From contig JAVZCB010000002.1 of the NCBI GenBank assembly GCA_038874595.1, positions 64,001 through 128,000 on the forward strand: a DNA stretch of 64,000 nucleotides, given 5' to 3'. The translations under genes and the position numbers were made by a program. The first letter of the stretch is position 1; each line of letters starts with the position of its first letter. Source of the stretch: Candidatus Micrarchaeia archaeon. Its GTDB lineage: Archaea > Micrarchaeota > Micrarchaeia > CAILAH01. Shown in pieces: positions 12,793 through 45,533 of this stretch. Below the pieces are notes generated by a model. That model ran no database searches, had not been told where the DNA came from, and saw nothing but the letters and a program-made list of their open reading frames with translations.

Positions 12793-12876
12793 AATTCTTT
12801 TTGTACCTAAACTATTATATGTGAAAACATCCAAAAACCTATATAACGAAAAATGCAAAATAAGGAAAAATAGCTA

Positions 12877-15800
12877 TTAGTGGTTGCTGAGCCATTGCAA
12901 TATCCTTGTGTACACCACGTATACCTTATCATTGAAAGTACCAATGTTGCCCTGGTTATACACCTGCACTGTTGGACCGCTTGGTGTATATGAAAGCGAC
13001 CTTGAAGTAACGTTAAGAGGTGCATCTGCAACCAGTGTGCCGCCAACATAAACCTGCAGGCTCGCATTATACTGCTCAGGCAACGGGCTCGGCTCAAGGT
13101 TTGGGCTGCCTGTAGGCACGAATGATATCAGCGCCGAACCGCTCGCAGTCGTGTTTGAATATCCAATACCTATGTTGGAGACGTTAGTGTTCGTGTACTG
13201 CGGGAGTGCTAACGGGGGCAGGCCGTTCTGCTCAGTAACCTGGACACGTGCGTTTGGTATCGGTACAAGAGTAATATGGTTTAGCACCGTTACGTTAAGG
13301 CCGTATGGCTTGCCTGCCCTCAACGGGTAATTATTGCCCACAACCGTACCGTTGGTGTATACTATAATGTTGAGCTTCTCACCACCGCCACTTCCACCAA
13401 GCGTGAGCCATTCCTTAACCCTTGAGTATACCCTGTACACATCATCATTGAAATAGCCTACGTTGCCCCTGTTCGGCACTGAAACCGCTGATGAATTCGC
13501 ATAAGGCAGGTTCCTGCGCGATACAGTCATTGCAACCGTACCTTTGTGAATGCCATTCTTATACGCCCTTACTGTTATGTTGTATGCACCTACTTTCTCA
13601 GCAAGCACCTCTGCAGCGCCTGTAGGAACAACTGTCAATGAGATATTACCGTGTCCATCGGTGTGCGATTTAGCATAAACATAGTTGCTGACGTTTGAGA
13701 CGGTATACTGCGGAAGGGCAAACGGCAGGTAGCCGTTATATTCATAAATCCTTACCTCGCTGTTCGGCACACCTGTTCCATTAAAGTACTTCAAGCGTAC
13801 TGTAAGGTTATACGGCTCACCTGAATTATAGAAAGATGTTGTCTGCTTCCCATCAACGAGCGTGATTATTGTGTAGGACGGCGATTCTGTGTATCCTGAG
13901 AATGAGGTGACACTAAACCTCATTGTATTTGGTGTCAGGCATACTTGCGAGGCTGGTGAGTACTCGTAACCGGCTGCCAATATTTCAGCCTTGCTCTTTG
14001 GGAAACCTTCCGCCCTAAGCACGCCAACACCACTTTCTGGACCGCAATCGCTCACATTAATCGTTATTGTAGCGCTCTTGTTGAGCTGTGCTGCACCAGA
14101 GTGTGAGCTGTTTAATGAGACAAACTCCTTATCGACTATGATGTTTGTCCCGTTTGTTAGGTATGCGTATGTGATGTTAGCAAAGCCCCATTTCACACAG
14201 CCAGCTTCTGAGCTGTCCACGCATACTGATAGGTTCGTGAAATTGTTCGAGTTAGCGAATGTTGTTGAATAACCTATGTAGAAAGACGCGTTATATATAA
14301 GAACATCTGATAACCTGTTAAACTCTGGTTGGTTTGCACCTGCAGATGAAAATATAATCATTGGGAACACGCTTAGTGCGGGGTCATGCATTGAAACATC
14401 AGAAATATTATTCCAGTCAGAATCCTGGTTAAAGTATATTGAAGCCATTGACCCATAAACTTCCCCTATATGGATATTGTTTGCAATGGCATTCTCCATC
14501 ACAATCCCGTATAGGTTGTCTCCAAATGTATTATTGGTAAGGTTTGCATAATGCGTCCTATAAACATATGCCCCTAAGAAATTGCCTTCTGACCTTGAGG
14601 CGTTTATTCTTGAGTGGTTGCTGAATAGGATTATAAGACCGTTGTTTTGCAGCGTATCTGAGCCACGCAATGTTGTGTTTGTAACATTCGCCCTTATCGC
14701 ACCGCAAAGCACAAGCTCTGAGTACTGGCCGTTAGCAAGGTTTGTCGGGACGTTTACAAAAAGTATCGGCCTGTTGCCAGAGCCGGTTACATTCTGCAAT
14801 GTTGTGTTACATATGGCATAGTATGGAGAATCGATAACTTGAAGATCCATCATGCCGCTCTCCTGTATTATGTCGTGTGCAAGCCTTGTACCTGTAAAAA
14901 TACCACCTATGTAAACACCTATCACAGATGAGTTGTACACCCTATTATAAAGAAGGTTATTGTAGTTTCCTCCTATTACAATTCCTCTTGAGGCAAAAAC
15001 TACCCTGTTCCAGGAAACATTATTCAAGGAGCTCTGGTCCAAAGAGATGCCATCATAACATCTTGTAATATTGTTTGATGAAACGTTGGCATAGTGGCTA
15101 TTCCTTATGTAAATCCCATTCCCATCAGAAGAACTGCAATTTACAATCTTGTTGTATGCAACCAGTGTCCTGTTTGAGTTTTGGTCAACAAATATGCCTT
15201 TTGATGTATTGTAAACAAAATTCCTTACGTGGCGGTTGCCTATTGCGTTCTGAGACATTATCGCGGCCGCTGTAAATCCAATGCCCCCACTAATATTTTG
15301 TATGGAGTTATCAGTGTAATTATTGTTATATGAGCCCAGGATCAATATGCCACCGGCAACATCGCGCCCTAACAGGTTATAGATGTGGTTATCATATATC
15401 GTGCTGTTTGTTGTGCCAAAATCTACTATGCCTCCCACCATTACACCAGACGCTGTTGCCGAGAGGTCCTTTATAGTGTTGCCTCTTATTGTAACATTAG
15501 ATAGATTGCCGGCTGACGGGCCACTAATCATCAAAATCCCAAATACCTTGCTTGAGGCCGGACCTGGCACATCTAACGTTATATTCCTTATCGTGTTATT
15601 AGCAATCACAAAGCCGCTGGATTTGTTCATGCTGTCTCCCAGTATTATTCCGCTTACGGTTTCACCATCATCAAGCTCGCTCCTGAAGTTCTCGATTGTG
15701 TTGTTAACTATCCAAATGTTGTTGAAGTGGTTGTAATTGTTTGCATCCTCGCCAAAATTGATACCGTGTGGCTGCTTGCCGCTGTCTGCTGTGAAATTCC

Positions 15801-21333: not shown

Positions 21334-21446
21334 AATGCCTGCACCACCTTAATTATATATAATATAATTTAAATACCTGCCATATAATAAGGGCGGCTTT
21401 TAATAAGAGGATCAATACTAAAGACCAAGACGGCCAAGCATACTCA

Positions 21447-23369
21447 TTATTTAGAAATTATCCCTGCCAGTAGGTAGGACAAGGCTAATATTGCAAGAAA
21501 GGCGGCCAAGCCATAGAGTAATGGCAAATACCTGCTTTCATTGTGTTTAAGCCTTTTCTTCTTCCAGCGGTATGCCGCAAGTGCGCCAATAAGGCTCAAA
21601 AGCAAGGATAATAATAACAGGCACAGGGGCTCATAACCGTACTGAGGCTGCACCTCGGCAGGCCGCTTTGAAACGTATAATGTTATCTTGCCCGTGGATT
21701 GGAGGAGACCATACTCATAAACCTCTACTGGTATTTCATAAGAGCCAGGTGCCGTACCTTCGGGAACATATATTGTGTAATTGATGTTTGCAAACCCTCC
21801 AGCTTTTACTATCGAGGGGACCGCTGCAAGCCGGACCCAATCTTTATACGGGCCGAGCAGGACAACTGTTGCATCTGCGGAGTGCGCATTTCCAGTGTTT
21901 AATATTGTGAGCATGCTGCTGTGCGGCACGGAAGGATAGACTGACTCAACACTATCAACAACCTTCAGCACGGGTTTTCTTACTGTTAGGTATACGTTTG
22001 CTGAAAGCGGCACCCATATTGTTTTATTGTAGAGCCCTATGCATTCAAAAATCCCTTCCGTGGGCCCTTTGTAGGTTAGGGCCATCTGTGGGCTCATATC
22101 TAAGTATATCGTTGCATTTACAGGGGTGCGCGCAGAAACGTGAGATGAATTGAGAGCTACCCTTACATAGCCGGCAAGATCCGGCCCTAAATCAACACGG
22201 CAGCTCACATTATCCAGCGGAACATTTGAAAATAATGTTACGCTTGCACTGCCACCTTGGGGATAATTGTTTTCAAGGTATATATCCTCACGGGAAGGCT
22301 TAAAGAGAGGTGATGGGGGAGCAACTGGATGTGTCTTATTTGTAATGTTTATCAGACCGAACCAGCCACCACCGCCCCCCGTCACACTGAATGTTATGCT
22401 ATCATGGCCAACGTTGCCGAAGTAATCCTCCGCATAAAGAACAAGCGAATATGTGCCGGCTTTCAGAGAGGAGAGGATGTATGATGTGTCGCAGCTAGGG
22501 AGAGAATAACTTTTCCCGTTAAGTGTATACCAGCAAGATTTCACGCCATCATTATCTGTTATGAGGAAATTAAACGGAATCTGCTCACTTTGCCTGTATT
22601 TGCCGCCGTCCACTGGAGAGTATATCTTGACATATGGGGGGATTGAGTCATCCTTAACTGGGCCTATGCCATTTACAAGTATCGAGTAATTCCCGGTATA
22701 GCCGGCAAGTGTAAGCTGTGCGATTTCGCCAGGTTTTACTATTGCTGTGCTTGTTGTTGTCAAGCCATCCGATTTTACAAGGCCGACAACAAGGTAAGGA
22801 GTAACCGGGATGATTTTGTTACCGTTTATGTCTGTTGAGTTTATTACCGTCACATTAACCAGGTTGCCTGAACGGGTGACATTAACTGTGTAATTTCCGG
22901 TCAGCCAGCCCCTGTGGCGCACAAGCTTCCACCTGAAAGCAGATGAGAAATCTGAAGGCGTATCGCTGATAAGAACAAAGGGAATTGATGGGTACCACGC
23001 CTTAAAGCTTGATATCTCCAGCGGAAGGTTGACACAGAGTGTGGGCGGCACGGAAGTTACCTTAACTGAGTAATGAGTTATCTCAATATAGTGCCCATCA
23101 ATGTTTGTGCCATCAGCATATGCGAGCGTGATGTATTTGTTTTGCAGGTCAGATGCGGACGTGCTGCATACACGAAGCATCGCGTCTGGATTTGATATGC
23201 TGTTGTCCTTGTACGAAGTTGAGTTTACATCATACGTTAGGTTTAGGCTTTGCAGAGGATTATCTGCGCGCACTATAGATACTTGATAGTACTGTGCGAA
23301 TGTGCCCGCGGATAGGATTAACAAAGCGAGAACAACTATTTGCAATCCAACCCGTACGTTTGCTGACAT
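21447..23369 (-). CDS. Membrane-anchored surface protein (shared N-terminal 'B' domain, Ig-like domains, two C-terminal TM helices)
   Basis: Signal peptide; DSIPPYVKIYSP...GTYSLVLYAEDYFGN Ig-like domain; NTGN...PGSYEIPV domain; C-terminal hydrophobic pair with a KKKR stop-transfer. Confidence 0.75.
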   Translation of the reverse strand: MSANVRVGLQIVVLALLILSAGTFAQYYQVSIVRADNPLQSLNLTYDVNSTSYKDNSISNPDAMLRVCSTSASDLQNKYITLAYADGTNIDGHYIEITHYSVKVTSVPPTLCVNLPLEISSFKAWYPSIPFVLISDTPSDFSSAFRWKLVRHRGWLTGNYTVNVTRSGNLVNVTVINSTDINGNKIIPVTPYLVVGLVKSDGLTTTSTAIVKPGEIAQLTLAGYTGNYSILVNGIGPVKDDSIPPYVKIYSPVDGGKYRQSEQIPFNFLITDNDGVKSCWYTLNGKSYSLPSCDTSYILSSLKAGTYSLVLYAEDYFGNVGHDSITFSVTGGGGGWFGLINITNKTHPVAPPSPLFKPSREDIYLENNYPQGGSASVTLFSNVPLDNVSCRVDLGPDLAGYVRVALNSSHVSARTPVNATIYLDMSPQMALTYKGPTEGIFECIGLYNKTIWVPLSANVYLTVRKPVLKVVDSVESVYPSVPHSSMLTILNTGNAHSADATVVLLGPYKDWVRLAAVPSIVKAGGFANINYTIYVPEGTAPGSYEIPVEVYEYGLLQSTGKITLYVSKRPAEVQPQYGYEPLCLLLLSLLLSLIGALAAYRWKKKRLKHNESRYLPLLYGLAAFLAILALSYLLAGIISK

Positions 23370-23387
23370 CAGTACACCTTTTGCATC

Positions 23388-25091
23388 TTATGGAGCAACT
23401 AATTTTTTGGTTATGCTGAACATCTCGTACAACCAGTCAAAGACCGGCAAAACATAATCCTTAGACTGAATTTCCTTGCTGTTCACCCAGCCGGGGTCTG
23501 CGCATGATTTATCAGAGACAAGAAGAGGAACGGTTGTCGTGAACGAGCCATTGTAATATACAGTAACAGGGGTCGTAACATACATTGAGTAGTTGCCTAT
23601 CCTGGAAGATAGGATTGGGCCACGCACCGGGTCGTTGTATAGCTTGTTGCAGGTAGGTGCTATCACAAGCTTTGCATACCCGCTCGTGTTCCCAGTGATT
23701 GTGCCCCTTACAGTGCTTGAAACACCTATCAGGGTTCCTGAACTGTTCCAAATCTGTGTTGGTGTGAATGGATTAAGGCCATTGATTTCAGTTATAATAA
23801 GCACGGGGCTCGGATATATGTTGCCATCTGAGTCGTTTATATACATCGTAACATTATAAGGCCTGCCAGCATATGGGAATATGTTTGTCTTGTTGTTATC
23901 TATGAGTATGTAAAGCGTGCGCACCGGATTGACCACAAGAGTGCCTGAAACAATGTTATTCTCATCGCACTCAACAAGCACATTATTCCTGTCCGCATGC
24001 GCGGTAAAAATGTAAGAGCCGCTGCGTGCTGTGTTTGAAAAAGTGACTGAGCGGGTTGTTGAGCCGCCTGGCAGGAGGTTCTCTGTAATTATCCAGCTTG
24101 TACTGTTTACATAGCCACCAGGCCCTGTTATGTTGAGTGTCAAGTTGAAATCTGTAGTTATTGGGACATTCCCTGTGTTTGTAAGTGTGATTGTGGCAAC
24201 CGATGAGCTCCCTGAATAAATCGGGTTTGCACTGAACCCCAGCGTTGGAACGATGTTAGAACCTATGCATAGCGCAGTACCAATACCGTTAACGACGAAA
24301 TAGCGCGTGTATGCGCGCTGGTCGTTTACGGTCTCGTTGAAGCGCAGCTGGACTGGGAGTTGTGATGAGGAGTTGATTATTTTTGCATCACAGCAAGAGC
24401 TGCCATGGTCATCACTACATAACCCTACTATCAGTGCACGGCCTTTCGAAGAACTTATGCCCCAGTCAGGATCTGAAGGCGATTTAACTTGCGTGCCTGC
24501 ATCTGTCTGAAACGTAATTGCACTGATACTGCCAGTAACGTTGCCTGTTGTGTGCGAATATGTTGCTGTTGTAGAATACGTGCCGCGCAACGTGCCGTTT
24601 TTATAATCCAAGAATGCAAATGATGGGTTTGAGCCATCGATGCTGTTGGAATACAATATGTACGGCCTGCCGGGGAATGCTGAAACATATATTATAGGAG
24701 TCCTTGTGAAATCCTTGAACTGCGAGAATGCAAACTTGTCAACGGGCGTCATATAGCACGTGCCCCCAGCTGAGATTGATGCGTTTACGAGGGTTGCTGA
24801 TGACCCTGCTGTAAGGTCCTTGCTTATGGTGATATACGTGGCTGTCCCGGAAGTATTCATTGCATAAACTGCTGCAACGTACTTCTTACCTACGTCACAT
24901 ATTTTTATTGTAAAATCAGGGTTGGTTGCCGGGTCAGGCAACACATCAACATACACTTTCTGTGTGTATGATGCAGTAACGTTCCACACGTGGCCTGATG
25001 AATTTGTAATGTACGCTGCCTGTGGGAATGCCTGCGAAAGCAGCATAAAAAGGAACACTAAGACCTGCAATAAATGCAAACGACCTGACAT
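23388..25091 (-). CDS. Secreted protein: 'B' domain + CARDB-like Ig domain + 'GxPY' domain
   Basis: Signal peptide; TITLTNTGN...ADRNNVLVECDENN is CARDB-like; C-terminal AGRPYNVT...EINGLNP...IAPT. Confidence 0.75.
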   Translation of the reverse strand: MSGRLHLLQVLVFLFMLLSQAFPQAAYITNSSGHVWNVTASYTQKVYVDVLPDPATNPDFTIKICDVGKKYVAAVYAMNTSGTATYITISKDLTAGSSATLVNASISAGGTCYMTPVDKFAFSQFKDFTRTPIIYVSAFPGRPYILYSNSIDGSNPSFAFLDYKNGTLRGTYSTTATYSHTTGNVTGSISAITFQTDAGTQVKSPSDPDWGISSSKGRALIVGLCSDDHGSSCCDAKIINSSSQLPVQLRFNETVNDQRAYTRYFVVNGIGTALCIGSNIVPTLGFSANPIYSGSSSVATITLTNTGNVPITTDFNLTLNITGPGGYVNSTSWIITENLLPGGSTTRSVTFSNTARSGSYIFTAHADRNNVLVECDENNIVSGTLVVNPVRTLYILIDNNKTNIFPYAGRPYNVTMYINDSDGNIYPSPVLIITEINGLNPFTPTQIWNSSGTLIGVSSTVRGTITGNTSGYAKLVIAPTCNKLYNDPVRGPILSSRIGNYSMYVTTPVTVYYNGSFTTTVPLLVSDKSCADPGWVNSKEIQSKDYVLPVFDWLYEMFSITKKLVAP

Positions 25092-25160
25092 AACTACACC
25101 TGCTTCTACTGCACTTTTTTTGTATGTTGCACATTCTCACCAATACTTTATATTGCTTAA

Positions 25161-26747: not shown

Positions 26748-26754
26748 CTTAGAA

Positions 26755-28494: not shown

Positions 28495-28680
28495 AACACC
28501 CCTACACACTGTTTCTATTCCCTATTTTTATTACATTACTATAGCGTAATATTATATAAAGGAATCATACCTGCAGGAAATTGCCGTAGCAGGAATATAA
28601 TACCATAATACCGGCTTATTAATAGCACGCTCTTTCCAGGATACGTGCATCAGCGCATTAATGGATAATAAGAAGAAATG

Positions 28681-28700
28681 CAAAAAAGAAAGAAAAGAGG
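28681..28700 (-). terminator. Oligo-T archaeal terminator after the 224-aa gene
   Basis: Minus strand reads CCTCTTTTCTTTCTTTTTTG immediately after the stop codon. Confidence 0.55.
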
Positions 28701-28708
28701 TTTCCAGC

Positions 28709-30918: not shown

Positions 30919-30944
30919 AAGATTTGCTTTTCACTTTTATTTGA

Positions 30945-33900: not shown

Positions 33901-36900
33901 GAATTTGTACCGTTATTCCTAACAGAATACCCCATACAATCAAACACAACGTTTGATGAGTTAATCTCAACACAGACCGCAATCTGTTTGTTAATGTCTG
34001 ATAGGTATACTGTATAAGGCGCCCCTGTGATGTTGTTATAAAGAACATAAGAGCCACTGCTGCTTATCTTAAAGCACTCACTATCGTTTCTCTGCAAAAT
34101 ACCGTACTCACTTAATGGAACCACATCCCTTAAGGATAGGAAATTTGACACTGTGTCTGGTGTGTTATTCAGCAAAACCCAGCCGTGGGTTGTATTATAT
34201 TTCCAAAGCTCAAGCTTCTGCTCCTTATAACCAACTGTCTCTGAATCAGCCCAGTGCCATTTTATGCTATCAATGGAAGGTGTCCCTTCAATGGGGGATA
34301 TCCTCAAATATTTGCCCCTGAAGGAAGACCTTTGTGTCGGCAAAGATGCTGGCTGTGACGTCCAATTAATTACGTAAGATGTGCCTGCATCTATAACATC
34401 ACTAAGGTATATTCGTGTATAGTTCACATAATTGCCGAGCGGGTTGTCTATTGATGTGTTGGTAATGTTTATTACAAACCCTGAAAATGTGCTATTAATG
34501 AAAATATCATAGCTGTTGTTGTATATGTGCTCATTTGAAACTATGGAGTTATTCTGATTCTCAAACACATACCCAACTATTGAGCTTGAATGTAACGTAT
34601 TATTGGCCAGGCTTGTGTTAACTGACCCGCTAATAGATGCTCCAACAGGATTTAGGTATATTGAGTTGTTTGCAGCATCGTTGTTGTTTGCCCTCAAAAA
34701 TAACATGCCTGCCATCCTATTGGCGTATAACCTATTGCCAAAGATGTTTGTATTGTTTACCCTGTCAAGGGATATTGCAACATAAGCATTTGTAATGTTA
34801 TTGAGCCAAATCGTGTTATTGAGGCTGCGTGTCAGGTCTATACCATTCACAGCCGTTCCTGAAATATTGTTTGCAATTATCGTTATGTTGTATGCATAAT
34901 AATTAACTTCTATCCCATGATAATTGCAGTTGTAGATTTGGTTATGTAATAAGAGATTGCCATTGCTGTTATACATGAATGCCACACAATCATAAGTTGA
35001 GTTATATATTGAGTTGTAAGAAATGTTATTGTAGTTAGACTCATTCACAAAGACTAAAAACGAGCTATTATAAAGAGAGCTATTTACAAGCGTGTTATTA
35101 TTTGACCTGATTAAAGCAAAGCTTACATTTACGTTGTGCCTTGCAGTATTATTCGCGAACTTGTTATTTGAGCTCCTATAAATAAAGAACCCGAACTGCC
35201 TGTTGCGCTCTGCGGTGTTGTTTACTAAAGTATTGTTATTGCTGCCTATCTGTATTGTGCTCTCATAATATACATTAAAGCCACCAATAGAATTGTTATA
35301 GGCTAGATTATTACTCACGCTGTTGTTCTGAGAAGACCCTATTGCAAACCCATACTGTGTGTTATTGTATGCTATGTTTGATGTGATGTTGTTGTATGAG
35401 CTCCAAGTGAAATCAAAACCATCTTTTGAGTTAGTATAAACTGTGTTGTTATGGATAGTATTATTCCTACCCTTATAAAACACACAACCCTCTTTTTTGT
35501 TGAGGTATATAACATTCTTTATAATACGGCTGTCATTAAGATTGCTCGAGTAGAAACCATCCTCAAAGTTGTCAAAGAATATGTTGCTATTAATCTCAAC
35601 ATTTCTTGAATCCAGAACTCTGGCACCGTATCCAAAATTCTGGCTGAAGGTGTTGTTTACTATTTTTGAGGATGTCACTTGCGATACATAAATCCCATCA
35701 TTGTTATTCTGCCCGCTGTTGTTTGTTATAATTATGCCATCTGCATTGTTAACGAAAATACCACCATATATTTGAGTGTTATAAACTTGGTTTTTAGTTA
35801 TGTTTATGCTGTTTGCCTCACTATATATACCTATTCCTGCATAAGACCAGTCAACCGTATTGTTTAAGATATTGCTGCTATTGACCCTGTAAACAAGAAT
35901 GCCGGCACCATCTGTAGAATAATTAATTGTATTGTTAGATATTAGAACATCTCTTGCCGTGCTTACAAATATTGAATGTGATTCCGAATTGTTTAACACA
36001 AGGCCTGAGAGGGTTATGTTCCTTCCAATATATACATATGCATTGAACTGAGAATCTTCTAATGTGGAATTTAACAGCTTAGTCAAATTTGAGTTGTAAG
36101 ATACATAGTTATAATCATAACCATCTACCTTACAGTTTGATACTGTAACATTCGTTACGGAGCCGTTTATAAGCATGCCGAACGAATCCTGCACACCGCT
36201 GTTTTTGATTGAATACCCTTCACAATCAAATATCACGTTTGATGCAGTAATCTTCACACATGCATAACCGCTGAATGGGTCTGCTGCGTTTGGAGCACCA
36301 GTATAATTTGAGTCCATCAGATACGCACCGCTCTCATTTATTATGGGGCAGTTTACGCTCTCAAGTATAGTATAATTGGAAAGCGGGATATGATTACTGA
36401 GAGAGAGTGTATTCTGCTGTATGTTGGGGGTGCTATTTAGCAGGTGCCAACCGGTTGAATTGCGCTTCCAAAGCTGCAGGCGGCCCTCATCATAGCCGGA
36501 TACTTCACTATCTTTCCATTGCCAGGAAATGCTATCTATAGATGGCGTTCCTGAAGCAATTTTAATATCAATAACCTTGTTCCTGAAAACCCTCTTCATC
36601 TTAGGTAGGGTTATTCCATTGAGAGAGCTCCAGTTTATGTAGTAAGATGCGCCTGCATCATAATTGTCAGTGAGGTTTAGTGTTGTGTAATTTACAAAAT
36701 TGCCGAGGGGGTTATCAATAGTAAGGTTATTTATGCGAATGTAGCTGCCTGAAGAGATGCTGCCAACATAGAAATCATATGAATTGTTGAAAAGATGGGT
36801 ATCGTTTGCTGTTAGTGCTGCTGGTGATTGCAGGAATAGCCCATAGCCAGAACCTGATATTTCATTATTCTTCATTGTTGAAGAGCTACCAGCAGTGAAA

Positions 36901-39900
36901 ATGCCATACAAGCAGTTATATACTGTGTTTCCCCTTACCTTATTGTTAAGGCCCCCTTCTATTATGCAATATTCGCTGTTTCCATAAACTGTGTTGTAAT
37001 CAATGAAGATATCTGAACAGGATGCACTCTCGAGGTGAATACCCCTCTTAAATTGTGTTATGATATTCCTTGTGATGTTAAAGCTCTCCCCACCCGTTTT
37101 CATATAGATGCCAACACCGTTTCCTCCTGGTCCAATCAACGTGTTGTTGAAATATTTGTTGTTTGTCCCACCCTCTGAATAAATGCCATGGTACTGCGAT
37201 TTTATTGTCGTGTTAATCACACTATTGTAATCGTTGTTGGTGCCTGCCAAATATATTGAATAATAGGCCTGTGTTATGTTTGAGCTGTTTATTATATTGT
37301 TATCTGCGTTGTAAATCAGGATACCTATCAAATCCGCATAAGAAGTGTAATTCTGCAAAATGTTATTACGCGAATTGAAAGCAATTGCTACTCCTGAAGA
37401 AATTTCACTACCTATATTTGTAGAAGTATATGAATCTGTAATATTATTGTAGTTAGAGTCGTTTATGGCAAAGCCAAACTGCGTGTTCTGATACGCACGC
37501 GAGTTCCGTATTAGAGTCCTATTTGACTTATGAAGCAGAATTCCATTCAATGTGTTGTAATATGCGCTAACGTTTGAAAGCAGATTGTTGTTTGATATCT
37601 CTAAATATATGCCGTCATTATTGTTGTGTGCAATTGAGTTTGTAATTAAGTTGCGCTGCCCGCCAATAATCCTAAATCCTGCAAGCGAATTATACCGAGC
37701 TGTTGAGAGATTTAATGATACATTTACATTATTGCCCAAATGTATGCCCACAAGATTTCTTTCTGCCGTAACGTTGCTAATAGATGAATTAAAGGAGGAA
37801 TGTATTATTATCCCGTAGTTAGTATTGTTTGCAAGCAAGCTGTTCCTGAACGTGTTGTTCTCTGAGTATCCTACATAGATGCCTGTGTTTGTGTTGTTAT
37901 GTATAGTGTTATACTGCGCAATAGAGTCGTTTCCATTATTTATTGAAAGCCCGATGGAATTCTTTCTGAGGATGTTCCCTGATATATAGTTGTTGTTTGC
38001 ATTCTGTATATAAATGCCGTTCTCGCTGTTGTAAACAACATTGTTTGTAAAGTTGTTGTAGCCAGAGAAGGTTGCTATGCCTCCATAAGGTGTACAGCTA
38101 TAAACGGTATTATTATCTATCAGGTTGTAAGGTGATGATGTGTATGGTACTATGCCTGCCGCGGCATTGTATACTTTGTTCCCCCTTATGATGTTGCGGT
38201 TCGAAACATCTATGAGAATACCAACACCGCCTGAATTGCTAACAGTATTGTTTTCAACAAGATTTCCATAAGATTCAAGGTACAGCTGAATACCGTGCTC
38301 CTCGCTTGAGTCTACAGTGTTGTTAATCAGCTTGCTGTCAAAGACACCCTGTAAGAATATGCCGTTTTTATATCCGGTTATTGAACAGTTCTTAACAGTT
38401 ACATTATCCCTGTATACAGACAACACACCTATAGCATTGCTCACACCATTATTGGATATAGAATAGCCGTTGCAATCAAATTCAACATTTGAAGTGTTAA
38501 CAAAAATGCATACATTCTTGTTTACATAGGGTAGCCCTGTGTTTGGCGCACCGTATATATCATTGCGTATAGTATATCTTCCTGGCTGGTTTATTACCAT
38601 ACATATTGATGTTGTATTCTCCAAAATCCCGTATATGCTGGCTGGATTATGATTGAATAAAGAGAGCGTATTAAAGTTCACATCGGGACTTTGGTTTACC
38701 TGCGACCACACCCCGCTGCTATATTTGAACAAGCTAAACCTGTTTTCATTATAACCGCTCGTTTCCTGGTCATCCCAATGCCATACTATCTTATCTATTG
38801 AAGGGGTCCCTGAAACCGTAGATATGTCTACAAATTTCCTTCTAAATGAAACTGCATCGGTAGGCAATGCACTCGAGTTTGTTGTCCATTTTATGTAATA
38901 TTGCTCAGAGGACGGGACAACATCGTTTAGAGATAATATAGTATAATTTTGCTTTATGCCGGCAGGGCTATCTATCATCACGTTTGAAAGATTGTATGTA
39001 AGAGGGCCATTTAAAACGCGAATATCATTAGTGTTGTTGTAATAATGATCCCTGTCTACAAAAACATTTGTCGCGTTATTTATCCATAATGAGTAATATT
39101 GGTTTGTGCCTATCGTATTGTTGTAGAGAGATATGGTATTTGCCTTTGTGTTAAGATAAATACCCACATAGTTCTGCCGGCCGGTATTGTTTGCCAGTGT
39201 TGTGTTGTATGCGCTCTGGTAAATCTCATAAGCATAGTATGAGCATTTGCTTGCATTGTTGAATGCAACTATGTTGTGGCTTGAACTGTACCCTATAGCA
39301 TAGCCGTCGCGCGTAAAGTTATATGCGCGGTTCCTGAATATCTTGTTATAATTGGACGACCCTACAACAACGTAGCCATATCTGCCATTGTAGATATTGT
39401 TAAGTGAAATGTTATTGTAATGGGAAGCTGTTAAATAGACAGTATAACCATAGTTGGTATTTGTATAATTATAGAGCGTATTGTTGATAACTTTGTTATA
39501 TGAGGAGCTTGCCAATGAGATGCCATAAACATTACCACTATGCACCGTGTTATCCTGTATTGTTGTGTTCTGTGAGCTGCCTAAAGCAATCCCGTTATTT
39601 GTGGTGTAATATATCCTGTTTGACGTGATTGTGTTGTTATGGCTTGTATCTATGTATACTCCATAACGGCCAACACGATAAATGGTGTTATTATGTATGA
39701 GGTTTTTGTTTGAGGTTAAGGATACATAAACGCCATCCTGTGCTGATTGGTAAATTATGTTGCGTGTGAGATTATTGCTGGGAGATAAATACCTCACTGC
39801 CAGCCCACCTAATGTATTATTATAGAGGGTATTGTTTGTCAGAAGGTTATTCTGGGAATTATAAAATATGATTGCACCATATTGTGAGTTGTTGTAGATT

Positions 39901-42900
39901 GTATTTTTGTATATCTTGTTATTCTGTGCATTATACGTTGCAATTCCTTGCGTATAGTTAAGTACTTTGCAGTTCCTTATCGTAACATTTGACCGTGTGG
40001 AATCTACAAGTATACCAACAGCACCATTCGGTCCGAGCGTGCCATCATTTTTCACTGCGTACCCCATACAATCAAGAATAACGTTTGATGCATTAACATC
40101 TATACACGCTCTGACCTGCATCCCGACTTCTGGCAGAGAAACGAGTACTGGCGCACCAGTAACATTGTTGAATAAGATATACGTGCCAGATGAAGATATT
40201 ACTCCACAAGATGAGCCTGTGAAACTGAATAAGCCATAAACCGCTGGGAAGTTAACATTTGACAGACGTATTTGGTTGTTTGCAGTGTCCGGAGTGTTAT
40301 TGAACAAAACCCAACTGCCACTTGTATAGTTGTACCCCCATAACTCGAACGTGCCCTCATCATACCCCGGCAGCTCACTATCACTCCACGTGAATACAAC
40401 ATTGTCTATGCTTGTTGTTGTGCTGTTTATCAAGACATATTTATCTTTGAAAGAGACCCTGCCGGCTGGAGGGGACGCCGGTGCAGATGACCATTTCATA
40501 TAATACGGGATAGAGGAGGTATCTGTGAAGGACAAATTAGTGAATTTGCTTAAACCGTTTGTGGGCGAATCAAATGTTATGCCTGCGGCGGTTATTGAAG
40601 ATGAAGTATCAGGATAAAATACAAAATCAGTACTGCTCCCATTGTATATTCTCATATTTGATAAAGTAACCTGCGAAGATGTAATGTATAAGTTATGCTG
40701 GCTTGAGTGGTAAGTTGAATTTGAAATCTGGATATTATCGTCTTTTATAACCCTTAGCCCATACGCTCCAAAAGAAGCTGTGTTGTTCTTGATTATGTTA
40801 TATGATGTAAAGTGCGCAAAGTTTTGTGATATGATGTTTGCACTTGATGAGTTATAAACCGTGTTGTTTACTACTGTTATATTATAGGTGTTGTGAAGGA
40901 GGTTTATACCAACCCAGTTATTGTGTACTTTGTTATTTGTAATAATCGAATTTGATGCATTATACACTGTTATCCCATACATGTATTTAGATACGTTACA
41001 GTTCTTTACGGTTACATTTGACCGCCGTGTATCAACAAATATGCCCCCTGTGGTGCCACCAACATCTGTGTTTCTTATGAAATGGCCATCACAATCAAAA
41101 ACAACGTTTGATGCGTTTATCTCCACACACACCTTGGCGTCCATACCTAAATCGGCCAGATGTACATCAATTGGTGCACCTTCAAGGTTATTCTTTATTT
41201 TGTAGTTGCCGCTCTCGTTTATTATTATACAGGAATAAATGTCTGATGAGGTGGTATAACCACTGAACGAGGTTACATTAAACAAGACGTAATCCCCTGT
41301 GCAGGAGAGCAGCCTGCAGTTTGGGCACAAAAGGCCATATGTCAAAATCTCATTTCGTGATGTCGGGAACCCCGGCTTTTTGTATATTTTGAGCTTATTG
41401 CATGATGATGTGTTAAGTGTTATATTGGCAGGGATGTTTGTAAGTGTCGGCGCGTTTAAAGACACAAAATCTGGGGCTGCACGATAGTTAGTGGTATTTA
41501 CATCTGTGTACTGGATGTAAAAATCACCCATCTTTATCTTTCCAATCGATGAGTTATACCCCATCACCAACCCAACAAAACGTGGATTCTTCAGATAATT
41601 TACGGACCGGTTAACGAATAATGGAGATGAGGTGTTGTAAATTTGGATGTTATTGAACACAATCGCATAATCTCCTGTACCAACAAGGTAGTTTATGGCA
41701 TATAATCCATAGTTTGTTGTATTTTGTATATATGCGTTTTCTATTTTTGCAAATGTCACATTGTTAAGATATAACCCATAGCCACCACAGTTAGAGAACG
41801 AGTTGTTAAGGAATTTGTTAACCCCTTCGTACATAAATTCCCTGATGATCATACAGCTGCTCCCACACCTGTTAATTGAGTTGTTTGCAATTAATATCTC
41901 CTTTCCATACGAGACATCTGCTCCATCAATTACATCTACAAGCTGATTATTCGTAATATTAGAATAAGCAATCTCGGATAAAACAATTCCGTTTGAGTTT
42001 GATGAGAAAGTATTATTATTAAATTTAAAAAAACTTAGGGTTGTACCTGTAAGTTTTCTTGTGTTCGTAAAAGTATTATTTTCGAATTTAGATATCAAAA
42101 CGTTTGATACTACGCTCTGGCCAGCATCTACAAAACGGTTATCATAAACATCAATAGAGATTAGATTCTTTATATGTAATGCGCCTTCCATCCCCTTTAT
42201 AGTGTTGTTATAAATTTCAGTGTAAGCTAAATTCATTTCATCAGAATATGCTGTAATGCCCCATGCACAACCTCCGCATTTTCCATCTATGTGGTTATTG
42301 AATATCTGAAGAGAGTTTGGGTTCGCAACGCTTTTTAGGTAATAAATAAATATTCCACCAAGGTCTGAAATCAAAAGTGATCCTCCAAATGGGCCCTCAA
42401 TGGTATTATTATATATCGAAGATGAATGTATTGAATTTGCTAAAATAGTAATTCCTCCATTTGTATCTTTAATCGTATTGTTATATACCTTGGCATTTTG
42501 CATATCAATCATAACTATAGCTGTAGGTACTCCAAATTCTTGAGTATCTATAAACTGCTCAAAATAATTTCCACTGATATTCAAACCATCTTTTGATGAG
42601 GCAAAATAAATACTTATGGCATTTTTATAAAACGTGTTATATACAAACGTGATGTTTTCAGCAACTCCGGTTATAAAAAAACCAACACCTGTATTTGTTA
42701 CGTTATTTTTAGCGATTGTCACATTCTTTAAGGTCGTGACACAAGAAAAACAGGACTTTAGTAAATAACAGGTGTTGTTATAAAATGAGATATTCTCTAT
42801 GAGCTTATTTGATATATCCATATCTTTCAGTAAGTATGTACCGTCTTTTGCAATGTTGTTAGATATATTTGAATTAATCATATTTCGCACATAGATATAT

Positions 42901-45533
42901 CCCTTGTTATCCTGAATCTCACAGCCACTTGAATTCATAAAACGGTTCCCAATTATACGACTTTCACTAATATTTAATGCGATAATACCACTGCAGAATT
43001 CAGATTTACCTATATTTTGCACATTATTGCGGTTGATTGATACATTATACAAGTTTGAATAATACGAGAAAACAACAGAGGTTATTGTTTGAGGGAGGCG
43101 AGATGTGTTAACTAAATCAAGCGTATTCCCTGATATCTCGGAATTTGCAAGGATTTCAACTAGATAATTAACATAAACACCTATTGACGTGTTGAATATC
43201 TTATTATTTGATATGTTTATGTCCCAGAGGGTTTTCTTAAAGCTAGGGGATAATGTTCCTTCAGAAAGAGATACGCCAAAAGTACAGCTGGAAATGTTGT
43301 TTGATGATATCTCAATGTTGCTTGCTTTTGATATTTCTACAAATGATTGATAAAGCGGATCGTTTGCCGGCTGGTTTGGAGGGGGGTTTATCTTGTTATG
43401 GCGGATTATATCCTTTGTTGAATCCTGTTTATTTTCAAAAATAATTGCAGGAACGTTTTCACTAAGTAATCTCCTATTGAATTTATTATACTGAATTGAG
43501 TTCCCGCCATAATAATTCTGTATATATATCTCTAAAACTAAACTATAAAATGAGTTATTGAAGATTGTTGCGTTGCTCTCGTTTAACCATATACCGGTAA
43601 TGATGCCGTTAATGCGGTTTGAGGCAACACTTATATTTCTTGATTTTATTACATGTAAGGCCAGAATATCAACAGTTGAAAAATTAAAGACGCTGTTTGC
43701 TATAATTGATGAGTTTGTATTAACAAATTTAACACTTTCATTATTGGTCTTAAAACCAAATTGTGTGGAATTTACTATTATATATTTTGAACCCTCAGTG
43801 TATATACCTGCATTTGTGTGGCCTTCAATCAGCCCTTTTTGAATGGTTGTGTACTCAGAATTTACACTACATACTCCTCTATAGCCATAGTATGTTTGTA
43901 TAGGGATACCTCCTGTATAAACAGTGAAGTTGCTCCTATCAATAAATGAGCCCGTGCTTGAGATGATGTTTACACCACAATACTCATTTGCGAGCAATTT
44001 TGAGGTTCTTATTAAGGTATTATTGCTACTCGTGACCAAAATCCCATCATACTTATTCCTCCTTGCAATTGAATTTGTTATATTCACATCTAGGGAATTA
44101 GAAAGTGATATCCCCACCCCTCCTATCTTTGTTCCGTAAACTATTGTTCCATAAGCATTGTATACATTTGTGTTAGTTATTTCTGAGTTGTTTACATTGT
44201 CAAAAAGTATATTCACACCATACCCAGTAACCGTACAAGATGTTATTAGAATATTGCGCCTGTTCTCAGCATAAATTCCTACTGAAGTGGCATCATTTGA
44301 TGAAGATGAAATCGTATACCCATTACAGCTTAAGATTACGTTGTTTGCGTTTATGTTTATGCAATGGTTATCTGACTGCACACCTGAGATAGACCTCATC
44401 AAAACATAGGTATTGCCTTCTGTGTCAAGGTTTCCACAAAATCCAATATATATTGTTGGGTCAAGCGTAACCCATCCTTCAGGTGTGTAAAACCTCATAG
44501 ACCACTCCACACTTTCACTTGCATTTACTCTGAGGAACACTGTTTTTGACTCACCCGGACCAAGTATTACAGCATCGTAGTCCCTGCCCGCGGCCTTGGG
44601 CTTCTTCTTACTTACCTTCTCATAAATCTTAAACCCTGCTTCTGTCTTTTTGCCTCTATGCAGAGAAACCGCTTTTACTGCTTTTGCATCTGAAAATTTT
44701 GCATCATCCATCAATATTTCTACAGTGTTCTGGCTATCCATATTTTCAATATCTATTGGTACATCACAGATGTTATCATATAGACAATATACCTCCTTAT
44801 CTGCTGATATCCTTATGCTACCTGATGAAACCACCTTTTTATTATCAGCCACACTCTCTTGATAGTTTGCTGTCCTTGATAAATCAATATCTTCTGTGAG
44901 TGTATAATCATCAATCGCTGTTTGGTTTAAACCAATACCTAGTTCACTGCTGGCATTACTTAACGGCTCTTCAGGTGCCAGCCCCCAATCAATTGCACTC
45001 TCATCAGCCGTCTCATCGCTAGGAGGTTCCATCGAATTTGCTTCAGAAAAGTTGCTCTCAGGGACAGGTGGCAAAGGCTCACTTGCTATGTCCACTATAT
45101 CCACGTATAGGCCTGTTGCGTTCTGGGTTTTATCCTCATCAACCTGGATCTTGCTTATATCTGCATATATCGCATTATTGGAGGAGATATCCATCTCATC
45201 AATATCCGATTTAATATTATCAGCGTTCCATTGCTGCATTTCCTGCTGCTCTGATAAGTCTTCATTATCTGGATTATTCGCTTGCAGCGGCAGGCCAACG
45301 CTTGGCAGCACACCTGCTTCGTTTTGGGTTGAGGAGGGAGGTTGTGCTGTATCTGTATTCCATTTCGTCTGCATTTCATCCTGAATAGCAAAAGATTCGT
45401 TAGAAACATTCCCAATCTGTTGTGTATAAATGCTAAACGTATCATTAGAAAACGTCGCAAATATGCTCAGCAATGCTAAGAACAATGTTATATCTAATAT
45501 AAAAACAAAGACTGCCAAACGCCCATGCATCAA
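30945..45533 (-). CDS. Giant beta-helix surface protein, 4862 aa: six tandem modules and a C-terminal pilin-like 'A' domain
   Basis: N-terminal hydrophobic segment, acidic linker, six C..I...G.Y.L.....G...C....(A)SNV..(D)C.GY modules, linker domains, C-terminal WQRFFGNVNGSIYL...TITIYIELE. Confidence 0.85.
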   Translation of the reverse strand: MMHGRLAVFVFILDITLFLALLSIFATFSNDTFSIYTQQIGNVSNESFAIQDEMQTKWNTDTAQPPSSTQNEAGVLPSVGLPLQANNPDNEDLSEQQEMQQWNADNIKSDIDEMDISSNNAIYADISKIQVDEDKTQNATGLYVDIVDIASEPLPPVPESNFSEANSMEPPSDETADESAIDWGLAPEEPLSNASSELGIGLNQTAIDDYTLTEDIDLSRTANYQESVADNKKVVSSGSIRISADKEVYCLYDNICDVPIDIENMDSQNTVEILMDDAKFSDAKAVKAVSLHRGKKTEAGFKIYEKVSKKKPKAAGRDYDAVILGPGESKTVFLRVNASESVEWSMRFYTPEGWVTLDPTIYIGFCGNLDTEGNTYVLMRSISGVQSDNHCININANNVILSCNGYTISSSSNDATSVGIYAENRRNILITSCTVTGYGVNILFDNVNNSEITNTNVYNAYGTIVYGTKIGGVGISLSNSLDVNITNSIARRNKYDGILVTSSNNTLIRTSKLLANEYCGVNIISSTGSFIDRSNFTVYTGGIPIQTYYGYRGVCSVNSEYTTIQKGLIEGHTNAGIYTEGSKYIIVNSTQFGFKTNNESVKFVNTNSSIIANSVFNFSTVDILALHVIKSRNISVASNRINGIITGIWLNESNATIFNNSFYSLVLEIYIQNYYGGNSIQYNKFNRRLLSENVPAIIFENKQDSTKDIIRHNKINPPPNQPANDPLYQSFVEISKASNIEISSNNISSCTFGVSLSEGTLSPSFKKTLWDINISNNKIFNTSIGVYVNYLVEILANSEISGNTLDLVNTSRLPQTITSVVFSYYSNLYNVSINRNNVQNIGKSEFCSGIIALNISESRIIGNRFMNSSGCEIQDNKGYIYVRNMINSNISNNIAKDGTYLLKDMDISNKLIENISFYNNTCYLLKSCFSCVTTLKNVTIAKNNVTNTGVGFFITGVAENITFVYNTFYKNAISIYFASSKDGLNISGNYFEQFIDTQEFGVPTAIVMIDMQNAKVYNNTIKDTNGGITILANSIHSSSIYNNTIEGPFGGSLLISDLGGIFIYYLKSVANPNSLQIFNNHIDGKCGGCAWGITAYSDEMNLAYTEIYNNTIKGMEGALHIKNLISIDVYDNRFVDAGQSVVSNVLISKFENNTFTNTRKLTGTTLSFFKFNNNTFSSNSNGIVLSEIAYSNITNNQLVDVIDGADVSYGKEILIANNSINRCGSSCMIIREFMYEGVNKFLNNSFSNCGGYGLYLNNVTFAKIENAYIQNTTNYGLYAINYLVGTGDYAIVFNNIQIYNTSSPLFVNRSVNYLKNPRFVGLVMGYNSSIGKIKMGDFYIQYTDVNTTNYRAAPDFVSLNAPTLTNIPANITLNTSSCNKLKIYKKPGFPTSRNEILTYGLLCPNCRLLSCTGDYVLFNVTSFSGYTTSSDIYSCIIINESGNYKIKNNLEGAPIDVHLADLGMDAKVCVEINASNVVFDCDGHFIRNTDVGGTTGGIFVDTRRSNVTVKNCNVSKYMYGITVYNASNSIITNNKVHNNWVGINLLHNTYNITVVNNTVYNSSSANIISQNFAHFTSYNIIKNNTASFGAYGLRVIKDDNIQISNSTYHSSQHNLYITSSQVTLSNMRIYNGSSTDFVFYPDTSSSITAAGITFDSPTNGLSKFTNLSFTDTSSIPYYMKWSSAPASPPAGRVSFKDKYVLINSTTTSIDNVVFTWSDSELPGYDEGTFELWGYNYTSGSWVLFNNTPDTANNQIRLSNVNFPAVYGLFSFTGSSCGVISSSGTYILFNNVTGAPVLVSLPEVGMQVRACIDVNASNVILDCMGYAVKNDGTLGPNGAVGILVDSTRSNVTIRNCKVLNYTQGIATYNAQNNKIYKNTIYNNSQYGAIIFYNSQNNLLTNNTLYNNTLGGLAVRYLSPSNNLTRNIIYQSAQDGVYVSLTSNKNLIHNNTIYRVGRYGVYIDTSHNNTITSNRIYYTTNNGIALGSSQNTTIQDNTVHSGNVYGISLASSSYNKVINNTLYNYTNTNYGYTVYLTASHYNNISLNNIYNGRYGYVVVGSSNYNKIFRNRAYNFTRDGYAIGYSSSHNIVAFNNASKCSYYAYEIYQSAYNTTLANNTGRQNYVGIYLNTKANTISLYNNTIGTNQYYSLWINNATNVFVDRDHYYNNTNDIRVLNGPLTYNLSNVMIDSPAGIKQNYTILSLNDVVPSSEQYYIKWTTNSSALPTDAVSFRRKFVDISTVSGTPSIDKIVWHWDDQETSGYNENRFSLFKYSSGVWSQVNQSPDVNFNTLSLFNHNPASIYGILENTTSICMVINQPGRYTIRNDIYGAPNTGLPYVNKNVCIFVNTSNVEFDCNGYSISNNGVSNAIGVLSVYRDNVTVKNCSITGYKNGIFLQGVFDSKLINNTVDSSEEHGIQLYLESYGNLVENNTVSNSGGVGILIDVSNRNIIRGNKVYNAAAGIVPYTSSPYNLIDNNTVYSCTPYGGIATFSGYNNFTNNVVYNSENGIYIQNANNNYISGNILRKNSIGLSINNGNDSIAQYNTIHNNTNTGIYVGYSENNTFRNSLLANNTNYGIIIHSSFNSSISNVTAERNLVGIHLGNNVNVSLNLSTARYNSLAGFRIIGGQRNLITNSIAHNNNDGIYLEISNNNLLSNVSAYYNTLNGILLHKSNRTLIRNSRAYQNTQFGFAINDSNYNNITDSYTSTNIGSEISSGVAIAFNSRNNILQNYTSYADLIGILIYNADNNIINSSNITQAYYSIYLAGTNNDYNSVINTTIKSQYHGIYSEGGTNNKYFNNTLIGPGGNGVGIYMKTGGESFNITRNIITQFKRGIHLESASCSDIFIDYNTVYGNSEYCIIEGGLNNKVRGNTVYNCLYGIFTAGSSSTMKNNEISGSGYGLFLQSPAALTANDTHLFNNSYDFYVGSISSGSYIRINNLTIDNPLGNFVNYTTLNLTDNYDAGASYYINWSSLNGITLPKMKRVFRNKVIDIKIASGTPSIDSISWQWKDSEVSGYDEGRLQLWKRNSTGWHLLNSTPNIQQNTLSLSNHIPLSNYTILESVNCPIINESGAYLMDSNYTGAPNAADPFSGYACVKITASNVIFDCEGYSIKNSGVQDSFGMLINGSVTNVTVSNCKVDGYDYNYVSYNSNLTKLLNSTLEDSQFNAYVYIGRNITLSGLVLNNSESHSIFVSTARDVLISNNTINYSTDGAGILVYRVNSSNILNNTVDWSYAGIGIYSEANSINITKNQVYNTQIYGGIFVNNADGIIITNNSGQNNNDGIYVSQVTSSKIVNNTFSQNFGYGARVLDSRNVEINSNIFFDNFEDGFYSSNLNDSRIIKNVIYLNKKEGCVFYKGRNNTIHNNTVYTNSKDGFDFTWSSYNNITSNIAYNNTQYGFAIGSSQNNSVSNNLAYNNSIGGFNVYYESTIQIGSNNNTLVNNTAERNRQFGFFIYRSSNNKFANNTARHNVNVSFALIRSNNNTLVNSSLYNSSFLVFVNESNYNNISYNSIYNSTYDCVAFMYNSNGNLLLHNQIYNCNYHGIEVNYYAYNITIIANNISGTAVNGIDLTRSLNNTIWLNNITNAYVAISLDRVNNTNIFGNRLYANRMAGMLFLRANNNDAANNSIYLNPVGASISGSVNTSLANNTLHSSSIVGYVFENQNNSIVSNEHIYNNSYDIFINSTFSGFVINITNTSIDNPLGNYVNYTRIYLSDVIDAGTSYVINWTSQPASLPTQRSSFRGKYLRISPIEGTPSIDSIKWHWADSETVGYKEQKLELWKYNTTHGWVLLNNTPDTVSNFLSLRDVVPLSEYGILQRNDSECFKISSSGSYVLYNNITGAPYTVYLSDINKQIAVCVEINSSNVVFDCMGYSVRNNGTNSIDGSIGVLVDANRQNVTVRNCKVQNYTHGVTTYLASGNFIHNNTVFNNSQFGILLAYMSNYNNVENNTLYNNSAAGLGAYISSQYNNFTNNTAYSNLYGFYIYASNSNKIIRGKSSNNSYGVRIEYSNNNNFTLYNSSNNSYDGFYLIGSVQNIINSSIASFNSQNGIVLRDGSTDNVIRNSTFTRNTAAGISIIRDSHNSKILQNNVSFNGQGGMIIHSYNLVLSVMYTNLSGNDIYNNSQFGILIGDRSPYSYIYNNSIHHNYGDGVLTASSNNTLMLNKVYRNQGHGLYFYPSRNQTIYGNSVYNNSYGITLSYCGNSSIILNNVTQNSNAGMLIYGTESTIITNNTVRLNQEGMLFQSNSQNNFIGSNKIANNSYYGIHMVESGNNLIKNNIFENHTTNNGKSILAEFVSNITVVENVFRMNYEHIRLRNSATSNISENNMSLSYSHATNVYNSSRINVSSNRISFAVFGGGIVYELGNLSVAYRNVINNSAFGIATNSSNHSIFENNTVYNCGSGAYAGYVIYQSDNNTMRNNIGYNNNPDGVLVYMSTRSNIINNTMYSNTKNGFDVFESSYNALNNNTAYLNGEYGFILNGAVYNNVTGGKSYNNSYSGYLLIGGTNNRLVNVSSYNNTQHGVMLDGTGYNLIANSTFIDNKYSGVHFLGVSEDNFIEFNYIRNPSALYGGVYIISSVRVYANNNTVVSNTYGINSVNSNTIFLSGNNISRNTVKGIYLDQNSLTYTLSSNYICFNDNMDIENNYINGMISSSGQKDYCDYWYQWAENNHYGCEFSCSGLWQRFFGNVNGSIYLTDSEGGLSRYVYKWNDAKAVNVYFADGDSIIDWQALQAIGRDTSGGASSNDFIELDTAFSSTSFPDNINKTYSIDGTIPKETDSYAIYKRTVENVPVANSSLRPTQFKTGILWDTSDGGSEYSGTQSTVWAVKASPSPEPDTYGEYMYAAMIPYTLATYEGAGNTITIYIELE

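Follow-up and report, generated by a model that had tools for sequence, protein, structure and literature searches.

A conserved, Sec-exported candidate surface assembly of a Micrarchaeota clade, with giant beta-helix proteins and three shared coupling domains

Bacterial donor-strand filaments that depend on Sec and do without an ATPase include the chaperone-usher pili and TasA. The subunits of chaperone-usher pili (FimA/FimH, PapA/PapG) are joined head-to-tail via an N-terminal extension, while their tip adhesin carries its binding part at the N-terminus and a subunit-like domain at the C-terminus, which accepts a neighbour but cannot donate to one, and a special base subunit is found at the other end. 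Many surface proteins of Firmicutes are fixed by the recurring modules SLH and CWB2; we know of no cell-wall polymer in Micrarchaeota. Donor-strand filaments of archaea have been described since 2022, namely threads (PMC9715654), bundling pili (PMC9245690), cannulae (PMC12518558) and tafi (PMC11821415). Sulfolobus threads consist of the subunit Saci_0406, with the subunit-like Saci_0405 proposed as cap, and their polarity and anchoring are still unknown (PMC9715654). The subunit of the bundling pili, AbpA, is TasA-like (PMC9245690). For Nanobdella, large secreted pectin-lyase-like proteins were proposed for host contact (bioRxiv 10.1101/2023.10.27.564410). The attachment of DPANN archaea to their hosts is poorly understood; a role of giant surface proteins in it is suspected, and how these are mounted on the cell is not known. 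Here we analysed a gene cluster of a Candidatus Micrarchaeia archaeon, a small DPANN symbiont (genome of 918 kb, 93.5% complete), which is located in a window of 64,000 nucleotides (contig C2, positions 64001-128000). An earlier reading of the letters, termed the original prediction below, had described seven co-oriented exported proteins there, and this description held: positions 12877-45533 of the window contain seven open reading frames (ORFs), all on the minus strand, and a hydrophobic Sec-type N-terminus with an A-x-A-like cut was found for all seven proteins.

We favour, with roughly even confidence and from computation only, the reading that the cluster encodes a conserved Sec-exported surface assembly of one Micrarchaeota clade, in which giant proteins are tethered to the membrane via three private coupling domains, named A, B and C. 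The features of the cluster are as follows.

30945-45533, minus strand: ORF of the giant of 4862 amino acids (aa), with an N-terminal hydrophobic signal or anchor, an acidic low-complexity region and serial right-handed beta-helix modules.
30948-31514, minus strand: A_T, the A domain at the C-terminus of the 4862-aa giant, located by hhalign against the 224 family.
28709-29383, minus strand: free A subunit of 224 aa, with a Sec signal peptide and a single beta-sandwich domain, in its own transcription unit.
29192-29260, minus strand: N-terminal arm of A, residues 42-64 with the motif EGGN[IV][ST], the predicted donor segment according to conservation and complex model.
26755-28509, minus strand: membrane protein of 584 aa (probably 579 aa), first gene of the operon.
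25161-26747, minus strand: ORF of the 528-aa adaptor (550 aa if an upstream TTG start is used).
23388-25091, minus strand: 567-aa adaptor, with B at about residues 8-280, CARDB at 287-379 and C at 386-567.
21447-23369, minus strand: 640-aa membrane anchor, with B from residue 1 to about 240, an immunoglobulin (Ig) domain at 245-330, a CARDB-like region and two C-terminal transmembrane helices.
12877-21333, minus strand: beta-helix giant of 2818 aa, with two terminal C domains at about nucleotides 12880-13884.

The transcription unit of the 224-aa gene comprises a separate TTTAAA box, a GGTGA ribosome binding site and a T-rich tract 3' of the stop codon. A TTTATATA box likewise precedes the 584-aa gene, and the genes for the 528-, 567-, 640- and 2818-aa proteins come after it at short spacing. 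Pfam families in the cluster were limited to the beta-helix of the two giants and the CARDB of the 567-aa protein, to which NCBIfam added none, and the small cluster proteins gave nothing in Pfam or NCBIfam even at E 10. A description of these protein families was not found in the literature.

That three domains recur among the proteins, as originally proposed, was borne out by the comparison of family profiles with hhalign, and judged by these profiles the homology is real. Domain A of the 224 family matched the 528 family with a probability of 97.6% (E 2.7e-12) and the C-terminus of the 4862-aa giant with 94.4% (E 9e-8), the latter match beginning only at residue 63 of the 224-aa protein. 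Domain B was matched between the 567 and 640 families over 240 columns (96.9%, E 1.8e-10), and domain C between the 567 and 528 families (97.7%, E 1.5e-12). BLAST among the seven proteins gave modest links for A and C and marginal ones for B. From single sequences the B link was weak, with a BLAST value of 4e-5 only when composition correction was omitted and an hhalign probability of 36%. Using hidden Markov models of the C domains genome-wide, five copies were detected in the window (two in the 528-aa protein, two in the 2818-aa giant and one in the 567-aa protein) and a sixth in one 567 paralogue outside of it, with no other matches. The two copies of the 2818-aa giant cover residues 2484-2601 and 2655-2762 (independent E-values of 5.8e-15 and 1.5e-5) and are linked by BLAST to the 528- and 567-aa proteins.

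For the free A subunit 46 homologues of 192-244 aa, most of them 220-241 aa, were collected, which belong to Micrarchaeota wherever named. The AlphaFold2 model of the monomer is a beta-sandwich with a predicted local distance difference test (pLDDT) score of 73.5, in which residues 19-55 stay below 50 despite the invariant R35, W36, G49, G50 and N51. Thus the N-terminal EGGN segment, the most conserved stretch of A, is disordered in the monomer models. Three copies of mature A were modelled as a complex in three runs, together with three controls. The interaction prediction score from aligned errors (ipSAE) was 0.71 (0.01, 0.71 and 0.72 for the single runs), the best of the three controls reaching 0.00; in a calibration of the tool, 20 of 30 proteins solved as same-chain pairs reached this ipSAE mark, compared to 1 of 23 proteins with a single-chain structure. 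Contact agreement of the runs was at least 23% and the pLDDT of the partner at least 69. The modelled interface is asymmetric, arm versus sheet edge, with residues 42-64 placed on the segments 62-81, 86-95 and 213-224 of the following copy, and therefore open-ended chains would be possible. Interface positions were better conserved than the remainder of A (2.77 versus 2.29 bits, Mann-Whitney p 4e-4) and included 13 of the 19 invariant mature residues. The model predicts that copies of A associate head-to-tail via the conserved N-terminal segment; the original prediction had assigned to A the role of the polymer.

The copy of A in the 528-aa adaptor, termed A', covers residues 25-217 and has the donor motif at the mature N-terminus; it is followed by C domains at residues 222-376 and 377-528. 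In the AlphaFold2 model (pLDDT 78.4) the EGGN-bearing residues 24-45 fall below 50, and long helices (350-375, 501-524) end the C domains. Searches with this fold matched only generic macroglobulin, Ig or cupredoxin-like sandwiches. For the 567-aa adaptor Pfam detected CARDB (PF07705) at 27.3 bits versus a cut-off of 22.7, and its homologues are annotated as CARDB. Mean column identity was 59% for 44 homologues of the 528-aa and 61% for 40 homologues of the 567-aa protein, the latter with eight invariant Cys residues. With 45-55% identity across the clade and a near-constant length, both adaptors are unusually conserved for surface proteins. The 640-aa anchor, with transmembrane helices at residues 582-600 and 620-638 and a weak Big_7/PKD match in Pfam, has full-length relatives of 38-58% identity.

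An exhaustive search with the 640-aa protein identified nine proteins of 513-728 aa, in which A' is fused to an anchor. These fusions consist of a signal peptide, a TEGGN motif few residues from the predicted cut, an A' of the 528 type (E 1e-73 to 1e-86) and an Ig/CARDB-like body of the 640 type, in most cases with one or two predicted C-terminal transmembrane helices. As a second fusion type, B + C + C proteins were found in the same search. Since the chain of the 528-, 567- and 640-aa proteins forms one polypeptide elsewhere, the sequence comparison argues that the split proteins function as one unit here. The fusions also provide independent support for a chain of the order A'-C...C-B...B-anchor, in which the B:B and C:C contacts are putative.

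Both giants are beta-helix proteins. In Pfam, Beta_helix was matched with E 2.4e-74 and 248.7 bits by the 2818-aa giant (cut-off 25.9; PF13229 / NosD PF05048) and with E 6e-206 and 676.3 bits in 23 stretches by the 4862-aa giant, which also matched NosD with E 5.6e-168 and has a hydrophobic segment at residues 6-24. The A_T of the giants follows a conserved Cys-rich linker and extends from the first acceptor strand to the conserved last strand, without the EGGN arm. The arm-less A_T with its Cys-rich linker was also found in giants of at least four other genomes, and the largest open frame which ends in A_T has 7664 aa (G068:C21:34617-35129). The whole A including the arm occurs in the free A and in some cargos, in this genome a 711-aa beta-helix protein and a 938-aa protein. 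In the membrane-proximal proteins (528-aa adaptor and A'-anchor fusions) the arm is exposed at the mature N-terminus. As the A_T of a giant could accept and not donate, the giant would fit only as last acceptor and would be distal, and as the arm stands at the mature N-terminus of the anchors, an anchor could be the last donor and would be proximal. Provided that docking of the arm takes place in the modelled way, the order would be anchor, A chain and giant at the tip. The original prediction had regarded the polarity as undeterminable from sequence, and in this point it has to be revised, because acceptor-only A domains on giants and donor-first anchors allow the direction to be deduced.

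The deduced logic of a distal giant and a proximal anchor is the same as that of FimH in type 1 pili. The proposed assembly further resembles chaperone-usher pili in Sec export, lack of an ATPase, predicted head-to-tail assembly via an N-terminal arm, an acceptor-only tip and a base subunit. In contrast to these pili, it has no sequence or detectable fold relation to them and no outer membrane to cross, its tip would be a 4862-aa beta-helix protein and its base a three-protein chain or a transmembrane fusion. Neither a PapD-like chaperone nor an usher was found in the Pfam scan of all cluster proteins. With the archaeal donor-strand filaments, which are built of glycosylated beta-sandwich subunits with an N-terminal donor strand, it shares the archaeal origin and the independence of type IV pilus machinery; however, none of their families was found here, and they were not reported with giants bearing subunit domains or with a dedicated transmembrane anchor chain.

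The protein heading the operon had been called a membrane-anchored CWB2-like protein. Its 584 residues comprise a signal peptide, a triple repeat of CWB2-like fold (26-294), a beta-sandwich region and a C-terminal transmembrane helix (548-566). All ten ESM Atlas neighbours belong to CW_binding_2 clusters, with template modelling (TM) scores of 0.39-0.43 by query and at most 0.51 by target over alignments of 257-304 residues, while Pfam gave no match to PF04122 (CW_binding_2) at E 10. The likeness to CWB2 applies at the level of the modelled fold only. Two homologues of the 584 type (G065:C56:1141-2832 and G105:C2:73745-75409) contain one in-frame TAG each, for which a pseudogene, a sequencing error or read-through could be responsible. 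Comparable to the Firmicutes modules, CWB2 of the Clostridioides difficile Cwp proteins and SLH, one module recurs on many surface proteins of one genome, and a protein whose modelled fold resembles the CWB2 triple repeat is present. In contrast to Firmicutes, A is the recurring tag, and the CWB2-fold protein is transmembrane-anchored and present in a single copy per module.

The role of the 584-aa protein had been underrated, as its gene was found to be the strictest partner of free A across the sampled genomes. Among 201 genomes of the phylum, free A was present in 43 and the 584-type protein in 41, with both in 39, exactly one in 6 and neither in 156; these counts are descriptive and do not amount to a statistical test, the genomes of one phylum being related and not independent samples. 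Both genes were found in the same families; in two further large families neither was detected (0 of 56 and 0 of 36). They are nearly always neighbours, lying within 500 bp in about 39 pairs from 33 genomes, and free A is often duplicated in tandem. The full 528-type protein has a narrower distribution of about 16 genomes; besides the source genome, 14 of 15 also have A. In every one of the 16 distinct related loci whose length suffices for the trio, the genes for the 528-, 567- and 640-type proteins follow each other in that order, and a 584 homologue lies at most 10 kb away in 11 of the 16. Overall, the genes are conserved, co-inherited and syntenic; as they co-occur in other genomes, an objection from absent co-occurrence fails. 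A few related loci (L004/L051, L054, L061) contain a gene for a DUF2207 membrane protein (581 aa) and a 123-aa ORF between the 528- and 567-type genes.

The same genome contains a further set of such genes, which has diverged (C5:2387-14213, C5:46863-48998, C2:134649-140536). Contig C5 encodes a 692-aa protein composed of A', CARDB, DUF7107, CarboxypepD_reg and transmembrane helices, and further, in divergent arrangement, paralogues of the 584-aa (31% identity) and of the 224-aa protein. The cargos of this set are the 938-aa protein (Mal s 1-like) and the 711-aa beta-helix protein mentioned above, each with a full A at its end. A pair of 567/640 paralogues is located at C2:134-139 kb and is preceded by a Kazal-domain protein. 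Named relatives of the cluster proteins belong to Candidatus Micrarchaeota, Bilamarchaeaceae, Anstonellaceae and Anstonellales, the phylum being listed at NCBI at present as Microcaldota.

Besides the relatedness of the sampled genomes, several points weigh against an assembly held together by A. One of the three complex runs gave no interface, the agreement between runs was modest, and of the two interfaces which a trimer can have, just one was predicted with confidence. The conserved positions of A overlap in part with the core of the fold. The motif EGGN[IV][ST] doubles as an N-glycosylation sequon, and its conservation could be due to glycosylation or to recognition by the 584-aa protein, not to docking of subunits. 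A domain shared between two proteins does not itself demonstrate that the copies bind each other. Finally, neither a solved pilin nor any other family was matched by the fold of A, the best Z being 4.7, so the donor-strand mechanism has to be taken from the model. Foldseek against PDB gave no match for A at E <= 0.001, no pilin was among the matches of VIA-align in a wide search and a second look, and the A profile matched none of all PDB chains below E 0.24, thread, TasA/AbpA and cannula subunits not being among the matches. These subunits are also missing from the Foldseek and VIA-align lists, a weak or missing fold match being compatible with a relation. The sole look-alikes of A in the structure search were unnamed Woesearchaeota proteins of 255-272 aa (TM score 0.64). 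Look-alikes of the 584-type protein occur in Woesearchaeota/Nanobdellota as well, and with both kinds of look-alikes the principle may extend beyond the phylum.

In the tethered assembly that we favour, all parts would be exported by Sec with removal of their signal peptides, as read from the sequences. A would then associate head-to-tail, its arm (42-64) being laid on the beta-hairpin 66-80, the strand 89-95 and the last strand 213-224 of the neighbour. Giants such as the 4862-aa protein, with their acceptor-only A, would sit at the distal end of the chain, and arm-first membrane-proximal proteins would close the opposite end. Here this would be the 528-aa adaptor, presumably linked by C domains to the 567-aa adaptor and the 2818-aa giant, with B domains providing the link to the 640-aa anchor and its two transmembrane helices; in other genomes a single fusion of A' and anchor would take the anchor role. 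The 584-aa protein, by its sequence transmembrane-anchored and an obligate gene partner of free A, probably serves the A chain as a platform, a holder or a glycan-binding anchor. In length, this chain could range from a short tether to a true fibre. The appendage interpretation of the original prediction is partly supported; a long filament is one possible form of A, next to a short tether, a ring or a sheet. The beta-helix giants would likely serve to attach the cell to a host or substrate. Large secreted beta-helix proteins are shared with Nanobdella, a host-dependent archaeon, for which, in contrast, a shared coupling domain, a small free subunit and an anchor chain were not described.

A further-reaching proposal, which we consider possible and put forward tentatively, is a new class of appendage found only in the DPANN group: a fibre assembled without chaperone, usher or ATPase, in which private beta-sandwich subunits are connected via their N-terminal arms. 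Beta-helix adhesins of several thousand residues with an acceptor-only A would cap its distal end, a donor-first adaptor wired to the membrane via two more private domains would close its base, and a CWB2-fold membrane protein would be the assembly platform. In this case the A tag would predict the repertoire of displayed adhesins of each genome. In the assembly that we favour, the acceptor-only giants, the anchor chain or fusion, and the strictly linked CWB2-fold membrane partner would be three additions compared to the known donor-strand filaments. The locus offers a wiring diagram drawn from five uncharacterised families, with a self-docking subunit, its acceptor-only version, donor-first anchors and a co-inherited CWB2-fold partner. 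If this diagram holds, the A domain would serve as a marker of surface-displayed cargo in these genomes; it would also mean a further independent origin of donor-strand-type assembly, with a polarity that is readable from the sequences.

Part of the same evidence fits an explanation without a polymer, which we regard as somewhat unlikely and nevertheless as a serious one. As a module which binds carbohydrate or protein, A would fix many different cargos to one receptor, be it the CWB2-fold 584-aa protein, an N-glycan or the S-layer. Free A would act as competitor, filler or lectin, and B and C would be ordinary duplicated beta-sandwich spacers. The A domain indeed sits on several unrelated cargos of this genome, namely beta-helix proteins of 711, 772 and 4862 aa and the 938-aa protein with its Mal s 1-like domain, and free A is strictly paired with a CWB2-fold protein. 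In the fold searches A weakly resembled carbohydrate-binding modules and FN3 domains (Z 3.3-4.7), the C domains resembled generic macroglobulin, Ig or cupredoxin-like sandwiches in the structure search (Z up to 7.7), and the sequon in the EGGN motif points in the same direction. However, such a module leaves unexplained why a free tag is conserved, often in tandem and under its own promoter, why the motif stands at the very N-terminus of the anchors yet is missing on the giants, and why an asymmetric self-interface was obtained with controls at 0.00.

What the giants do could also differ from attachment. As pectin-lyase-fold glycan-degrading enzymes they would open the envelope of the host, with the small proteins as accessory carriers, a proposal which is compatible with the tether models and which we consider improbable. 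The Beta_helix/NosD fold is common to polysaccharide lyases and tailspikes, and for Nanobdella it was proposed that pectin-lyase-like proteins outside the cell degrade the host wall (bioRxiv 10.1101/2023.10.27.564410); however, no catalytic family or motif was identified in the giants, and pure adhesins commonly have the same fold. Still less probable is a two-dimensional coat or sheath, in which A would tile a second S-layer-like sheet on the 584-aa anchor with giants inserted via A: the head-to-tail interface fits sheets as well as fibres, and the small, apparently separately transcribed subunit with its transmembrane-anchored partner recalls the two-component S-layers SlaA/SlaB described for the host (PMC11329633), but a single interface type was predicted where a lattice needs at least two, an S_layer_MJ-type candidate is encoded elsewhere in the genome, and the pair of A and 584 was not found in the two large families of the phylum named above.

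Known identities of the cluster as a whole were rejected. A type IV pilus or archaellum locus does not agree with the Sec-type N-termini, and PF00437, PF00482 and PF01478 match only outside the window. The original prediction had stated that the window holds no class III signal peptide, prepilin peptidase or assembly ATPase, and this was confirmed, T2SSE, T2SSF and prepilin peptidase being encoded elsewhere in the genome. An ordinary S-layer was likewise rejected as the principal explanation: no NCBIfam S-layer model matched a cluster protein, and the only TIGR01564 (S_layer_MJ) match in the genome is a 915-aa frame on another contig (C4). The S-layer protein of Ca. Micrarchaeum harzensis (SLP_Mh) is a different, 101-kDa protein of the TIGR01564 type. 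At C4:~90900-95219, the 915-aa frame adjoins a 559-aa frame with two T2SSF (PilC/ArlJ-like) domains. An origin from a mobile element or virus was rejected because of the housekeeping genes which flank the cluster (ThyX, SufBD, SerRS and KsgA in Pfam) and its conservation across genomes.

One further ORF, not mentioned in the original prediction, lies inside the cluster between the genes for the 4862- and 224-aa proteins.

29554-30918, plus strand: ORF of 454 aa, acidic and Cys-rich.

Its N-terminal half is very acidic and rich in D/E/V, its C-terminal half is rich in Cys, no Pfam or NCBIfam family was matched, and it was not seen in the related loci. Its membership in the system is doubtful. 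Next to the cluster, a 571-aa ORF (11143-12858, minus strand) matches ThyX (Thy1) in two stretches and only at residues 333-520, so either a long N-terminal extension or duplication is present or the start was called too far upstream. A 1592-aa ORF (52730-57508, minus strand) was considered and rejected as a member of the system; with DUF4011, AAA_11/AAA_12 helicase and MTES_1575 restriction-endonuclease-like domains, it encodes a cytoplasmic helicase-nuclease, possibly a defence or repair protein.

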